The translations under genes and the position numbers were made by a program. A stretch of DNA of 63,041 nucleotides, counting the filler, from Octopus bimaculoides (lineage: Eukaryota): NCBI RefSeq assembly GCF_001194135.2. It is 4 parts of 4 records of this genome, joined end to end, with 100 filler letters (N's around TTAATTAATTAA, not from the genome) between each part and the next. Parts side by side here need not be neighbours in the genome. Positions count along the whole stretch, not along the records: positions 25,793 to 53,120 come from NC_068983.1; positions 53,221 to 60,731 come from NC_068981.1; 2 more parts are not named here. One strand, 5' to 3'. The notes beneath the pieces were generated by a model. That model was not told the origin of the DNA. It worked only from the letters and a program-made list of their open reading frames with translations, and did no database searches. How positions within the stretch are numbered: the first letter of the stretch is position 1; every line of letters begins with the position of its first letter. This document shows, piece by piece, positions 25,859 through 60,235 of this stretch.

Positions 25859-25903
25859 ATTCACGCTGATGAGGAACAAAGACTCAGAAACATGTCCCTG
25901 AAT
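25859..25903 (+). ncRNA. Minimal type I hammerhead-like motif (canonical core, weak helix II)
   Basis: AUUCACG-CUGAUGA-[GGAACAAAGACUCA]-GAA-ACAUGU-C-CCUGAAU. Helix I pairs 6/7, helix III is the palindrome ACAUGU, triplet GUC. Confidence 0.6.
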
Positions 25904-26141
25904 GCAGGCTAGGGTGGGTGGAGGAGTTTGTCTCCCCCTCGCAAAGATAAGGACACGGGAAATGTGTCAAGGCCAACAGGAAGCTGTGCAGCTTGCTAGG
26001 GCTAAATAGCAGTAGTATGTTCCCTTATTGGGACTGTCACGTTAAGTTGGCAGTATACAACTACTTTATCGCATCACTACTGCTTAAGTCTCTCTGAGAG
26101 ATTTAGAAATGTATTAGTTATAATATATATATATATATATA

Positions 26142-27060
26142 CAGACATGCAGGAAATAAATAGACATCTTTAATTCTCAAAATTTCTGAACTAAGCATTT
26201 TAATATGTTTTCAGCGGTGTATAATTTAAAATGTAATTATTCTTTTTTATTACAGGTGCCATTATATTAAACATTTGCGATGAGTAACCATGCCACGCAC
26301 AAACAATTCAGCAGAACACTCAGATTTTCAAAGATGTCGTATTGTTGAGCAGGATGAGGCTGGTCTTAGCCAGTGAAAAATCACCGAATATCTTCAAACT
26401 CCTCTTGCTACTGTTAATAGAATTATAGTGCAATTCAAATGCCAGGGAAAAGCATTAACAGATTCTCAAACCGGCCGATGTGGGCCCTCGGAAAGGAGGC
26501 GTCGCTGTTTGAAGAGAATTTTGGAAAACGAAAACCGTTCGAAGGCTTCTGGCATTGCAAAGCAGCTAGAAGTTAGTCCAAGAACGTGTGTTACATATCT
26601 GCATAAGCTGGGGCATAATGGACAAGTAGCTAGAAGAAAACCTCTCCTTCAACCAATTAATATCTTGAAAAGAAAGAAATGGGGTAAGGAGATGTCAGAA
26701 AAATTCAGGTCATTTTGGGATAGAGTGATTTTCTCAAATGAATCTAGATTTGCATTATTTTCAGACAGTGGACGTGTTTGAGGCTGGAGTCTTCCTGGTC
26801 AAAAAATTGATTTGAAATGACTCCAACCAACAGTGAAACTTGGTGGATTCTCTGTAATGGTATGGGGGAGTTATCACTATCAATGGTCATTCTGAGATGA
26901 TCAAATGTGTTAGAATCACACACTCTGAAAAGTCCATATAACGAAATACTTAAGCAAGGATTACGTCCGATGTATTCACACGATAACATAACAGAAAATG
27001 TGTTTTTATTCATGGAAGATGGAGCTACAGCAAACGTATCATCAAAGACATTCCAGCCTT
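26142..27060 (+). mobile_element. Tc1-family transposon, pseudogenised and 3'-truncated
   Basis: TA|CAGACATGCAGG… left end. ATG at 26290: MPRTNNSAEHSDFQRCRIV…VARRKPLL…WDRVIFSNESRF…PTVKLGGFSVMVWG…FMEDGATA, with in-frame stops. Confidence 0.9.
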
Positions 27061-27459
27061 CAGCAAACCCTCTTTTAGGGATAATCTTGGACATTATATT
27101 CATTGGGCGTGTGATTTAGGTAGGGGATACTTTGACTGCTATGTTTAGCATGTCGAGCGACCAGGTAGAGGCTCTTTCATTGGTTCCATTGCGTGATGAG
27201 ATTTTTTTACACATATATGTAATATGTATATATATCATCAGCAGAAGTCAGAGAGTAAGTCAAAAGCTGAGAGTTTCGTGTATTAGCACTTATCAAAAAC
27301 GAATCTGTCCATTGTCACTCTGTAACATCTGACGAAATAACTTCTAAAATACAAAACTTTGACAAAAACGTTAAGAGTAAACCCTGTTCTATGTGACAAA
27401 TTCTACCAGTATCGGATGTTTGAAAGTGTTTAGTTAAAAAAAAAAACTAATTAAAAAAT

Positions 27460-27670
27460 CAGTACGTCTAATTGAATAGATCCGAAATGGATGAAAGGCA
27501 AAGTCGACCGCGGCGGAATTTGAACTCAGAACGTAAAGACAGTGGAAATACCGTTTCTAAAATAAAAAATCTTGTCAAAAACGTTGAACTCAAAAACGTA
27601 AAGACAGACGAAATACCGTTAAGCATTTCGTTCGGTGTGCTAACGCGTCTGCCAGGTCTCCGCCTTAGAA
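27460..27670 (-). mobile_element. SINE with Meta-like domain
   Basis: gatgaaaggcaaagtcgacc…ggaatttgaactcagaacgtaaagacag…taagcatttcg…tgctaacg. Confidence 0.8.
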
Positions 27671-27831
27671 AGTAAGCATTNNNNNNNNNNNNNNNNNNNN
27701 NNNNNNNNNNNNNNNNNNNNNNNNNNNNNNNNNNNNNNNNNNNNNNNNNNNNNNNNNNNNNNNNNNNNNNNNNNNNNNNNNNNNNNNNNNNNNNNNNNNN
27801 NNNNNNNNNNNNNNNNNNNNNNNNNNNNNNN

Positions 27832-28140
27832 TAAAATTAACGTGCAAGTGGCTGAGCACTCCACAGACACGTGTACCTTTAACGTAGTTCTCGGGGATAT
27901 TCAGCGTGACACAGTGTGACAAGGCTGACCCTTTCAATTACAGGCACAACAGAAACAGGAAGTAAGAGAAAGTTGTGGTGGAAGAGTACAGCAGGGTTCG
28001 CCACAATCCCCTGCCGGAGCCTCGTGGAGCTTTAGGTGTTTTCGCTCAATAAACACTCACAACGCCCGGTTTTGGAATCGAAACTGCGATCCTATGACCG
28101 CGTGTCCGCTGCCCTAACCACTGGGCCATTGCACCTCCAC
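27832..28140 (-). mobile_element. tRNA-derived SINE (inverted relative to 20334-20712)
   Basis: Close reverse-complement match to 20334-20650. Confidence 0.9.
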
Positions 28141-28719
28141 ACAATGCGAATAGCGATACTGAAATCTCCATGCATTTTTCAATCATTTAATCCTAAGGAA
28201 TGTATTCTTGTCATTTGAAATTTAAACATTTATGTTAATTAAAGATGAATATCTGCTTTACTGCCCCCCTTGAGGTCACAGATATTTTGATGTAACTTGT
28301 TTTCTTTTTTTTGTACTGAACCAAATCTCAAACTATTTATACCAAAGTGTAGTTGAGGAGGTGTCCTCCTTAAAACTATTAACAGTTTTGCAATTTATTT
28401 GAGAACTAAATTAGTGGTGAAGCTTGGAAGCTGCTGCGATTAACGAAATTGTGGACTTAAGAATATATTCAACAACTATCGTGGTTGAATGATATCGACA
28501 TTAGAAACATTATTTAAAGATATTTTAAAATGAAATGAAAGTATAAAGTTATTGAAAATCAGAAAACAAGGAAAAAACATATGAAATGCATTGGCGTTCC
28601 AGATTTCCAATGAATTAAAATTAGAAATGTGTAATGCATTGAGGGAAGTTATTTTCTCATCATTAACTGGTGCATAAAACTCCTAATGGACGTCTTTCAA
28701 CATATATATGCTGTCTTAC

Positions 28720-28752
28720 CTTTAGGGACATTTGTTCACCGCCTTCATTCAT
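28720..28752 (-). CDS. Candidate first coding exon segment (MNEGGEQMSLK)
   Basis: ATG…CTA AAG|gtaaga is a strong phase-0 donor. There is no good upstream acceptor and no homology recognised. Confidence 0.15.
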
Positions 28753-29628
28753 GTTCTCATTGGAGATAGAATCAGTTTTGCAATTACTCAGTATAACTCA
28801 GACCGTTTCTTTTTATTGTAAATATATATCGAAAAATATTGTCCAAAATTGAAATCACCGAGCATAATGTTCATTTGTAATTTAGTCTTTTTCATTTTTA
28901 TATGCATTGAAGAACAAATATTTGTTTTAACCTGTTAGTCCACAGGGCACTTTCTGTATCTTATTAATTACATGCATTGAATTCTTAATTGGAAATTTTG
29001 CTTTAGTAATGCCAAGTATATATTTAAAGTGCCAGCGCATATACATATAAATACACACACACACACACACATATATATAGAAACATACATACATACATAC
29101 ATACATACATACGAGAACGCGTATGTGCTCAAGTGTTTATGTACGCACATATGCGTATGGGTTTATACACACGTATATGTAACGTTATATATTTATATAT
29201 AGATATAGATACAGATATATATAAATATGTGCATACNNNNNNNNNNTATATATATATATAATGATAAAAAAGGTAGTCAGTATTTGCATTAAAAAACTGC
29301 TTGCCAAGCGCCTTCATCTCCAGCGGTGTCGAAGAGGCCAAATTAGTAGCTTTTATAAAAATGTTCACTAACTTCTCTTCTTAAATATAGAATATCGCTA
29401 CACCACTTAAAACAATCTATGCATACATACGTGCATACATACATGCATACATACATACGTAAATACATACATACATACAAGGATTCTTTACATGTATTCA
29501 CTATTGGAATGGAACTATACTCCAAGTACTTCTTCTTCTTTGTTCTTTCTTCTACGCATCGCTCTCACTTCTTACTATTCTTACTATAAATTTCCACTTA
29601 TAGATGTAATAATCCATTCATCTACCAT

Positions 29629-29685
29629 TAACGTCTCCGATGAAGGGATACATTGGATTTTCCCTGAAACAGGTGTAAGACTTTA
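29629..29685 (+). ncRNA. Minimal type I hammerhead-like motif, U4C variant
   Basis: UAACGUCU-CCGAUGA-AGGGA(12 nt)UCCCU-GAA-ACAGGUGU-A-AGACUUUA. Helix I pairs 7/8, helix II 5 bp, triplet GUA. Confidence 0.7.
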
Positions 29686-29742
29686 TCCAGAAAACATAAT
29701 TTTAACTTTGCCATAGGTCTCTTTAACCTTTTCTTTCATTAT

Positions 29743-58770: not shown

Positions 58771-58934
58771 TAAAATTTATTAACAAGGGTAGAAATTGAT
58801 ATTAATCGATTAAAACCAGTGGTCTAGCATATTAAAAAAAAATTGCCCTTTTACAGTCTGTTGTGTCGCTGAATTTTTATTGAGAACATATTTTTCGTGG
58901 TTAGATGATTCGGCGTCTATTTCGGATATATATA

Positions 58935-58965
<31 letters not shown>

Positions 58966-59199
58966 ATGTATGTATGTATATATACACACACACATATATA
59001 TATATATGTATGTGTATGAATGCTTGAAAACCAGTGCTGGTATGTCTACGTCCCCGAAACTTAGCGGTTTGGTCAAAGTATTCGATAGAAGAAGTACCAG
59101 ACTTAAAAAAGTTAATACTAGGGTCGATTTGTTCGACTAAAATTCTTCAAAGCGGTTCCCCGGTATCCCCACAGTCTGATTACTGAAACAAGTAAAGGA

Positions 59200-59251
<52 letters not shown>

Positions 59252-59252
59252 A

Positions 59253-59341
<89 letters not shown>
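59200..59341. repeat. (TCTA)n microsatellite
   Basis: Direct observation. Confidence 0.97.
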
Positions 59342-59342
<1 letters not shown>

Positions 59343-59847
59343 TGTTGTTATCTATATANNNNNNNNNNNNNNNNNNNNNNNNNNNNNNNNNNNNNNNNNN
59401 NNNNNNNNNNNNNNNNNNNNNNNNNNNNNNNNNNNNNNNNNNNNNNNNNNNNNNNNNNNNNNNNNNNNNNNNNNNNNNNNNNNNNNNNNNNNNNNNNNNN
59501 NNNNNNNNNNNNNNNNNNNNNNNNNNNNNNNNNNNNNNNNNNNNNNNNNNNNNNNNNNNNNNNNNNNNNNNNNNNNNNNNNNNNNNNNNNNNNNNNNNNN
59601 NNNNNNNNNNNNNNNNNNNNNNNNNNNNNNNNNNNNNNNNNNNNNNNNNNNNNNNNNNNNNNNNNNNNNNNNNNNNNNNNNNNNNNNNNNNNNNNNNNNN
59701 NNNNNNACATACTGAAAAATTAGAAATAGCAGTCAAAGAACTACTAATTCTAACTACAATTTTTTCTCCCTAACGGATGGCGATATTTATGACACACATA
59801 GAACAAAACAGAAGAGAAAAAACAAAAACAAAACTTGCCGTTAGTTA

Positions 59848-59907
59848 ATCACGTACGACGTTTCGTGATTAGAATATAAAAAATTCTTTTCCACTCATCA
59901 GCATGAT
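59848..59907 (-). ncRNA. Minimal type I hammerhead-like motif, canonical core (left arm)
   Basis: AUCAUG-CUGAUGA-GUG(…)CAC-GAA-ACGUCGU-A-CGUGAU. Helix I 6 bp including one G·U. Confidence 0.8.
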
Positions 59908-60175
59908 ATACAAAATAAATCTGAAAATGCTAATTCACCCATGTATATGTGACCATGCGACATCACATATCACATGAGAAGAAGAAATCAGCATCCACAA
60001 ATTTATCGACCAGTAAGTTCCGTATCCCTCCTCAAAATTGACCCATGCCCGTCACAAATAGTCCCGCAGAAAATACTGCAGTTTGTGGATGCTGATTTCT
60101 TCTTCTCATGTGATATGTGATGTCGCATGGTCAGATATACATGGCTGAATTAGCATTTTCAGATTTATTTTGTAT

Positions 60176-60235
60176 ATCATGCTGATGAGTGGAAAAGAAT
60201 TTTTCATATTCTAATCACGAAACGTCGTACATGAT
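60176..60235 (+). ncRNA. Minimal type I hammerhead-like motif, canonical core (right arm)
   Basis: AUCAUG-CUGAUGA-GUG(24 nt)CAC-GAA-ACGUCGU-A-CAUGAU. Helix I 6/6, G10.1-C11.1, triplet GUA. Confidence 0.85.

Follow-up and report, generated by a model that had tools for sequence, protein, structure and literature searches.

Eight hammerhead motifs in 63,041 nt of Octopus bimaculoides DNA (the whole stretch analysed, hereafter the window) are supported as type I hammerheads of the Penelope-like element (PLE) or retrozyme kind with a self-complementary helix III, and they belong to six insertions. Our preferred reading, to which we give a probability of roughly 80%, is that these insertions are likely 5'-truncated and inverted ends of PLEs and of short ORF-less retrozyme-like parasites, whose helix III likely drifts. 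It builds on the motifs and their damage, their inverted layout, their tails and one target duplication, together with the homology of two elements (F1 and F4) and the family pattern of a third (F3). Helix III would differ between lineages because it needs to pair only with a second copy of its own, and hence, like helices I and II, likely drifts.

Hammerhead motifs of the window

All eight motifs of a first-pass annotation were recovered (Table 1). A strict type I hammerhead descriptor, composed after the motifs were known, is passed by four of them, and allowing one core mismatch adds the minus-strand motif at 52542 for a total of five, while the four that fail the strict form carry damage in the core or in the helices. 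In 60 local dinucleotide shuffles, a check that the annotation had itself proposed, the strict descriptor returned nothing (mean 0, maximum 0) and the relaxed one a mean of 0.3 matches (maximum 2). With four strict matches against none, the motif set is not the product of chance. That we are dealing with chance matches, or with DNA-level palindromes without ribozyme history, is extremely improbable, even though half of the motifs fail the strict descriptor, the hammerhead is absent among the best 150 of 153 Rfam matches (mostly microsatellite ones) and 3'-half motifs arise 12 times per shuffle; besides the shuffles, F5 agrees with the consensus given in the part of PMC4209133 used here, and for F3 chance is refuted by damaged positions at which 88-97% of the family depth shows the ribozyme consensus letter instead.

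The core C(U/C)GANGA had been described as common to all motifs. The exact core (C3-U4-G5-A6-N7-G8-A9) is found at 25859, 59848 and 60176 and a U4C variant at 29629, 30188 and 31363, but two cores are damaged, at G5 in the minus-strand motif at 30138 and at C3 in that at 52542. Likewise, shared helices I and II hold for the four strict and five relaxed matches but not for 25859 or 30188 (both plus strand). At 25859 helix II has a minimum free energy of 0.0 (no stable helix) and helix I a single contiguous pair, and as it stands this motif fails the pairing of helices I and II that a type I hammerhead requires; at 30188 helix I is only 3 bp long because about 25 nt were deleted after 30228.

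The eight motifs reduce to six insertions because 30138/30188 and 59848/60176 are inverted duplicates, placed head-to-head; no same-family tandem pair lies within 19 kb in the window. The predicted fold-back sequesters the plus ribozyme with a mean probability of 0.96 in F6, the left arm of which stops at an N gap, and of 0.81 in F3. For F2, we found neither an inverted copy nor a tail on one side, and no sign of a target duplication or a (TA)n target.

Table 1. Elements and hammerheads located in the window, with helix III and residue H.
Feature	Positions	Strand	Core	Helix III; H	Remarks
Frameshifted remnant resembling C-terminal part of PLE ORF	4263-5070	+			short motifs only
F1 element, ORF-less structured repeat	25817-26111	+			homologous to F4
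F1 hammerhead, decayed	25859-25903	+	CUGAUGA (25866-72)	ACAUGU (25890-95); C (25896)	helix II broken; C.C mismatch in helix I
F2 hammerhead	29633-29681	+	CCGAUGA	ACAGGUGU (29669-76); A (29677)	strict pass
F3 minus copy	30139-30184	-	CCUACGA, damaged at G5	damaged twice	helix I intact, 8 bp
F3 plus copy	30188-30228	+	CCGACGA	ACUCUGAGU (30216-24); A (30225)	head-to-head with minus copy
F4 element, ~350-nt ORF-less, strongly folding repeat	31260-31610	+			retrozyme-like solo unit; 5' end adjoins N gap
F4 hammerhead, canonical-sized	31363-31407	+	CCGACGA	ACCCGGGU (31393-400); C (31401)	strict pass; 6-bp helix I tipping long rod; 4-bp helix II
Two truncated F5 copies, head-to-head	32603-32825			ACGU kept	32613-32689 and 32707-32783; 3' halves only; one-sided extension to 32806; missed by first-pass annotation
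F5 minimal hammerhead, textbook PLE type	52542-52587	-	AUGAUGA (C3 damaged)	ACGU (52548-51); U (52547)	5-bp helix I
F6 fold-back insertion	59707-60375				inverted arms 59707-60001 and 60082-60375
F6 hammerhead, minus arm	59848-59907	-		ACGUCGU; A (59854)	strict pass
F6 hammerhead, plus arm	60176-60235	+		ACGUCGU; A (60229)	strict pass

The F3 family in public runs

F3 consists of inverted copies with a one-sided extension and (TA)n tracts on both sides, and it is the lineage (1 of 6, F1 and F4 being counted apart) that family-level data cover. Family letters were taken as the majority by depth in contigs from public runs. They restore G5 (88-95% of contig depth), the two arms of the palindrome (93-97%) and the 8-bp helix I (91-95%), and with a 3-bp helix II the majority letters give an intact motif. 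N7 and the centre base of the palindrome vary freely, while the arms are fixed. We also asked whether the 30188 copy might be chimeric, with two families fused where the ribozyme cuts; this was ruled out, the loose ends carrying the normal tail with the ~25-nt deletion. A SINE is found close to the F3 pair, at 30325-30540.

In three RNA runs we observed no pile-up of F3 read ends, which fragmented libraries show unreliably, and none of 432 RNA reads was 99% alike. The same lack of read-end signal is reported in the part of PMC11167929 used here for an active PLE ribozyme. Metagenome scans for the F3 and F5 motifs returned 0 and 0 loci, respectively.

F1 and F4 are sister ORF-less elements

Flanks had been called unrelated between families, and this does not hold for the motifs at 25859 and 31363, whose elements align with 167 of 270 columns identical (62%, z=16.4) and remain alike downstream of the ribozyme alone (z about 14). 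Among the other 27 of the 28 element pairs, z exceeds 1.6 only for the inverted 30138/30188 pair. Since 25859 and 31363 share a homologous body, the approximately six unrelated families previously proposed become five lineages. Of the 43 predicted pairs, 11 differ between F1 and F4 by double changes that preserve the hairpins, in a comparison of two sequences only. Folding z is -7.3 to -7.8 for F4 and -1.0 for the decayed F1. F1 further contains a 35-bp inverted copy of its own 3' end (25817-25851 and 26035-26069) with a one-sided tail, and is flanked on both sides by (TA)n tracts.

Both elements fit an ORF-less, self-paired unit of 150-450 nt with a type I hammerhead, decayed in F1. Within the parts of PMC7229834 and bioRxiv 10.64898/2026.07.22.740005 that we used, metazoan non-LTR retrozymes are similarly ORF-less and strongly folding (~260-350 nt for F1 and F4) with canonical-sized helices I and II, and helix III of F4 is likewise 2 bp with a tetraloop. 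Solo monomers are described there as common, and F1 and F4 are both solo, with no head-to-tail tandem units in the window. In contrast to those retrozymes, F1 bears a PLE-like inverted end and tail, and the window holds no tandem array.

Some loci, chiefly F4, might be live non-LTR retrozymes whose transcripts cleave themselves as monomers and yield circular RNA. F4 is intact, canonical-sized, ~350 nt long and strongly folded, and mussel retrozymes of 350-390 bp cleave as single copies (PMC7229834, in part). However, F4 is solo with one ribozyme and so cannot free a unit by itself, its core has the U4C change reported to lower in vitro activity (PMC3088659, in part), and the RNA reads of F3 gave neither close matches nor piled-up ends; we consider this reading unlikely.

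Relation to Penelope-like elements

The first-pass annotation correctly noted that none of the eight motifs is attached to its PLE ORF remnant (4262-5070), and in fact no ORF adjoins any motif in the window. The putative identity of the remnant is supported by short motifs only. Read by eye across three frames, the remnant displays WYNP, LFNRN, CxC, CxLC and LNK, which we take to be those of a PLE ORF. It had no match in the protein collection, none of its 4 pieces matched a Pfam family and the best Atlas value was 0.76. A hairpin with GAAAC near 5000-5030 was rejected as a decayed hammerhead, as it sits within what looks like the coding frame, between CxLC and LNK, and is without a core.

Inverted copies occur in F1, F3, the F5 pair and F6, and one-sided extensions in F1, F3 and the F5 pair; the latter is bounded by a 14-bp direct repeat (32603 and 32812), a target duplication. 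Head-to-head copies, one-sided extension, target duplication and (TA)n surroundings are shared with insertions of endonuclease-bearing PLEs, as described in portions of PMC3846280, PMC8557442 and PMC11167929, whereas the octopus extensions measure ~23 to ~75 nt against 30-40 bp published, and the octopus insertions, unlike published inverted pLTR insertions, have no attached ORF.

Metazoan PLE hammerheads, in the sections of PMC4209133 used throughout this comparison, share with the octopus motifs the type I topology, the consensus 'GAAAN Palind NU H' and the presence of several families per genome. In both, the motifs are mostly solo or in opposite-strand pairs, and opposite-strand dual minimal hammerheads are published for PLEs. 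Published palindromes span 4-10 nt, one of 9 nt having an unpaired centre (Hydra), and H=U is common. F5 fits the minimal hammerhead fully except at C3. In contrast, the CCGA (U4C) core of three octopus lineages is absent from all 56 rows of Fig. S3, and palindromes have 6-9 nt in five of the six octopus lineages while most rows have 4 nt. The first helix II pair is G10.1-C11.1 in F5, where an unpaired A stands between A9 and G10.1, and in F6, without a bulge, and A-U in F2, F3 and F4; in F1 the region is broken. G10.1-C11.1 directly in F5 and F6 only is unlike the type in PMC4209133, whose alignment is without cephalopods.

Helix III and the choice of partner

The palindrome is perfect in F1, F4 and F5, has one unpaired centre base in F3 and F6 and a G.G centre in F2, so that ACAGGUGU, previously listed as a palindrome, is an imperfect one. 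The AACGUU given for 52542 proved to be ACGU with H=U, the longer string taking in A14 and H17. Helix III had also been considered too short to fold alone: this stands for two of the six, but four are computed to be able to close a monomer loop.

Lunse, Weinberg and Breaker in 2017 reportedly described dimeric PLE hammerheads with a short palindromic stem III that cleave as dimers. In the literature covered on mixed-dimer specificity, which leaves out that study, we found no statement of a barcode. A selected barcode would mean that co-resident families diverge in helix III, avoiding mixed dimers that mis-cut or poison. All six palindromes of the window are distinct, and in computed duplexes each of the 15 mixed pairs binds less strongly than either of its two self-pairs, with margins of 0.6-8.6 kcal/mol; self-pairing is thus favoured, as the notion of family-specific dimerisation supposed. 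Palindrome arms are fixed within F3, the sisters F1 and F4 differ wholly in helix III despite their 62% identity, and lengths of 6-9 nt exceed the commonest published palindrome, ACGU, which by hand tally occupies 29 of 56 rows in Fig. S3 (PMC4209133, in part). Selection against mixing could also produce a change as complete as that between F1 and F4.

That this amounts to a selected barcode is not supported. Random palindrome sets of the same lengths are equally orthogonal in 171 of 400 cases, although by the strongest cross-pair only 86 of 400 match the observed set, and the centre base is free in F3, the sole family sampled. Helix I strands must swap too in a dimer, and cross-pairing of helix I is limited to at most 3 bp in 30 of 30 mixed cells (at most 1 bp in 27), so mixed dimers are already blocked by helix I. 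Hammerhead dimers arise in cis, between tandem copies (PMC6765202, in part), and four of the six helices III are computed to be capable of monomer closure. In our hand tally of Fig. S3 (PMC4209133, in part) a palindrome is common to more than one family in 8 of 11 multi-family species, with helix I differing in 6 of those 8. We hold the selected barcode to be quite unlikely. Also quite improbable is a PLE-dependent radiation in which helix III lengthened to 6-9 nt, often with a weakened U4C core and a cognate partner needed, while sisters of the F1/F4 kind diverged in helices I and III under selection against mixing, as kin recognition by a two-part code. Altogether, the palindrome tests gave no sign of selection beyond self-pairing and drift; a barcode is unlikely, and the palindrome differences likely reflect ordinary drift.

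Proposed origin and meaning

For PLE and retrozyme-like ends with a drifting helix III, we infer that two ribozymes of one family, carried in tandem on a single transcript of a source element, would form a double hammerhead, in which A15.1 of one copy pairs with U16.1 of the other and the helix I strands swap as well; where helix III closes a loop, cutting as monomers may be the alternative. A PLE reverse transcriptase/GIY-YIG enzyme would then copy the cut RNA into DNA rich in (TA)n, and the 5'-truncated and fold-back stumps left behind would later decay; most of the copies in the window are predicted to be inert. Partner choice would operate mainly through cis position and helix I, with the palindrome contributing as a by-product.

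Penelope-type and retrozyme hammerheads are already known as a kind, of which the octopus set is a further example. It may be of modest use as a naturally occurring collection of dimer helices computed to be mutually orthogonal, and for its family-wide U4C core. If a barcode were selected, it would be a first instance in which co-resident retroelement RNAs recognise their partners. With this set, the octopus is added to the animals whose genomes abound in PLE and retrozyme hammerheads.

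Hammerhead motifs and their state of decay

Each of the eight hammerhead motifs placed by the first-pass annotation was found at its coordinate. A strict descriptor, drawn up only after the motifs had been seen, required the core, GAAA, a self-complementary helix III, UH and at least 4 bp in both helix I and helix II; it was passed by 4/8 motifs and by five when one core mismatch was tolerated, while 60 local dinucleotide shuffles gave means of 0 (max 0) and 0.3 (max 2), so that motif density is not matched in shuffled sequence. The window holds 63,041 bases, 5,820 of them N, with abundant microsatellites and SINEs. 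The motifs are real hammerheads of a known kind, half-decayed: the core said to be shared by all is damaged at 30138 and 52542 (table). Helix III of 29629, ACAGGUGU, had been read as a palindrome and is mostly self-complementary but has a G.G at its centre, and the AACGUU reported at 52542 gives way to an in-register ACGU with H=U. Over the whole window, 27 GAAA-palindrome-UH 3'-half motifs were counted versus 12.3 ± 4.0 in 100 shuffles (max 26); about 10 of them are known sites, and a few others may be further remnants. As had been noted, none of the eight motifs adjoins the putative ORF remnant of a Penelope-like element (PLE), which had no match in the databases searched (protein collection, Pfam, Atlas).

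Coordinates of the ribozyme families (F1 to F6) and other features of the window
Feature	Position (strand)	Observation
F1	25859 (+)	helix II not stable, C.C mismatch one pair off core; 35-bp inverted copy of own 3' end plus tail on one side
F2	29629 (+)	CCGA core at 29637
F3 minus copy	30138 (-)	arm 30146-30184; G5 replaced by U, helix III altered at two places
F3 plus copy	30188 (+)	arm 30188-30226; helix I just 3 bp; CCGA core at 30196
F4	31363 (+)	CCGA core at 31369
F5	52542 (-)	C3 replaced by A
F5 inverted pair	32613-32783	two further truncated copies; extension on one side only, reaching 32806; 14-bp direct repeat at 32603 and 32812
F6 minus copy	59848 (-)	arm 59707-60001
F6 plus copy	60176 (+)	arm 60082-60375
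Putative PLE ORF remnant	~4263-5070	presumed PLE C-terminal motifs, spread over three frames
Possible F1/F4-family stump	8366-8398 (+)	33 nt matching 3' end of F4 (79%, E 0.003)
Possible 3'-half remnants	158 (+), 10591 (-), 13452 (-)	
Hammerhead-like stretch	52788-52891 (+)	
SINE-like repeat	30325-30733	very high copy; at least 20 similar stretches, e.g. 1005-1182, 60554-60731; RNA-run depth ~8,000 reads per direction
Transposase remnant	26377-26781 (+)	Tc1/Tc3 type; Pfam PF01498, E 1.1e-06, under gathering score
Inverted repeats	20334-20644 / 27836-28140	180 and 133 nt, 91-93%, ~7.2-7.4 kb apart; enclose F1 and transposase remnant
Non-LTR ORF-like fragments	36959-38544, 39821-41348, 50695-51365, 10666-12467	judged by eye; Pfam scan of six such pieces, 0 families
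TTAATTAATTAA	25684-25813, 53146-53157	alone within N runs; probably assembly scaffolding linker artefact

Five lineages in two anatomical classes

The motifs had been described as minimal hammerheads of about six unrelated families. Pairwise comparison of the eight element stretches gave two significant pairs out of 28, namely the inverted F3 pair and F1 with F4 (identical columns 167/270, z=16.4; 3' of the ribozyme only, 112/170, score 101.5, with 1000 shuffles reaching at most 58). F1 and F4 have a hairpin series in common, with both sides changed in 11/43 predicted pairs (only two sequences). Because of this homology, together with the strong fold (z -7.8 and -7.3) and canonical proportions of F4 (helix I 6 bp, helix II 4 bp, helix III 2 bp plus tetraloop), both look like solo units of a ~350-nt retrozyme-like family and not like minimal hammerheads. 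This size matches that of mussel retrozymes in PMC7229834, and retrozymes are presented as PLE derivatives in a 2026 preprint (bioRxiv 10.64898/2026.07.22.740005).

The F3 and F6 pairs are head-to-head inverted duplicates, and a third inverted pair belongs to F5; with the F1/F4 homology, these therefore leave five lineages in two anatomical classes. The inverted arrangement of F1, F3, the F5 pair and F6 is the one already in print for endonuclease-bearing PLE insertions (PMC8557442; PMC3846280), and PMC4209133 records pairs of ribozymes on opposite strands with 100-700 bp between them. The only same-family neighbours not on opposite strands are two F5 copies separated by 19.9 kb, one of which is a 3' half. 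Transcripts that span F6 or F3 are predicted to sequester the ribozyme in a fold-back (mean probability of pairing 0.96 for F6 and 0.81 for F3). Even in an active PLE, ribozyme mutants left in vitro insertion unimpaired (PMC11167929).

What is unusual here is the U4C core (CCGA instead of CUGA) in three lineages and the long palindromes. The three CCGA cores combine with an 8-9-nt helix III and unrelated flanks; U4C is family-wide in F3 (96-98% of contig depth), and F1, sister of F4, has CUGA. By comparison, U4C occurs in 0/56 rows of PMC4209133 Fig. S3, and PMC3088659 mentions it as a viroid variant of lower activity.

The F3 family in sequencing runs

Reads from 8 of 24 listed runs were placed on 30138/30188, so that family data concern F3 only; shares are summed depth in three contig sets (X2 and X5, organism A; X14, organism B). 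At the damaged sites of the minus copy, contigs mostly carry the ribozyme letter (G5, 88-95% of depth; the two altered sites in the helix III arms, 93-97%; helix I, 91-95%). N7 is variable (32-43%), CpG decay amounts to 3-7% and U4C is retained at ~96-98%. The palindrome centre is free in the minus-copy reading (one letter 23-36%, another 27-48%, the remainder the window letter), while in the plus-copy reading the listed variant reaches just 0.7-0.9% (organism A) and 23% (B); since the two readings disagree, exact centre shares depend on how short contigs are placed. The loose ends that follow 30228 and precede 30232 reveal the usual tail and, in the plus copy, a ~25-nt deletion. Core depth relative to unique flank was ~12,000x (X1) and ~7,300x (X3), which we take only as 'very many' copies because summed depth is no copy number. 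Of 432 X23 RNA reads on F3, none was 99% alike, 9 were at 95-99%, 92 at 90-95% and 331 below 90%; they derive from diverged copies in both orientations, and no piled-up read ends were seen in three RNA runs. Such a pattern is compatible with scattered copies being read through passively and is not evidence for expression of the window locus itself.

Family-specific palindromes as a proposed dimerisation barcode

The first-pass annotation proposed that family-specific helix III palindromes keep dimerisation within each family; the literature search, whose coverage did not extend to Lunse 2017, found no paper that proposes or tests this. We computed duplex energies for the six window helices with both terminal A-U pairs forced, nearest-neighbour values that leave the hammerhead core unmodelled and, for five of six lineages, concern single decayed copies. 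Self duplexes range from -1.6 to -14.9 kcal/mol, and the palindromes do favour their own kind, all 15 mixed duplexes being weaker than both selves (margin 0.6, F2/F4, to 8.6). Among 400 length-matched sets of random AC...GU palindromes, mean mixed pairing was no stronger than observed in 171, and the strongest mixed pair no stronger in 86; thus no excess of orthogonality is shown.

In a double hammerhead, topology suggests that helix I too must form between copies, because U16.1 runs on through H17 into N1.1 within one copy. Helix I cross-pairing is at most 3 bp in 30/30 cells and at most 1 in 27, versus 4-8 bp in intact cognates (n=5), so helix I alone bars mixed dimers. The view that helix III is too short to fold alone holds for F5 (loop impossible) and F1 (+6.0), which alone clearly require a partner, but not for F2, F3, F4 and F6, where loop closure is possible at +2.1 to +3.7. 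Single-copy cleavage is reported for invertebrate retrozymes with 2 bp plus tetraloop, and in PMC6765202 dimers are proposed to arise between tandem copies of one transcript.

PMC4209133 already gives the consensus 'GAAAN Palind NU H', describes genomes with many families each and sets out the dimer model, and repeat-type ribozymes share a palindromic stem III (PMC3088659). By hand tally of PMC4209133 Fig. S3 from PDF text with a detached GAAA column, ACGU makes up 29/56 rows and 6-10-nt palindromes are already present; 8/11 species with several listed families have a palindrome common to families, and in 6 of these 8 helix I differs between families. With random sets as orthogonal, mixing excluded by helix I and palindromes shared between published families, a selected barcode is very improbable (about 0.07).

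The hammerhead-like stretch facing F5 across (TAT)n combines a core-like CUCAAGA with a GAAACGU-U that follows it after an insert of 85 nt containing two hairpins; its helix I is weakly supported, with 4 pairs that are mostly wobble. It may be a hammerhead, long-armed or permuted, that has decayed and, if real, would bring the families with an ACGU palindrome to two.
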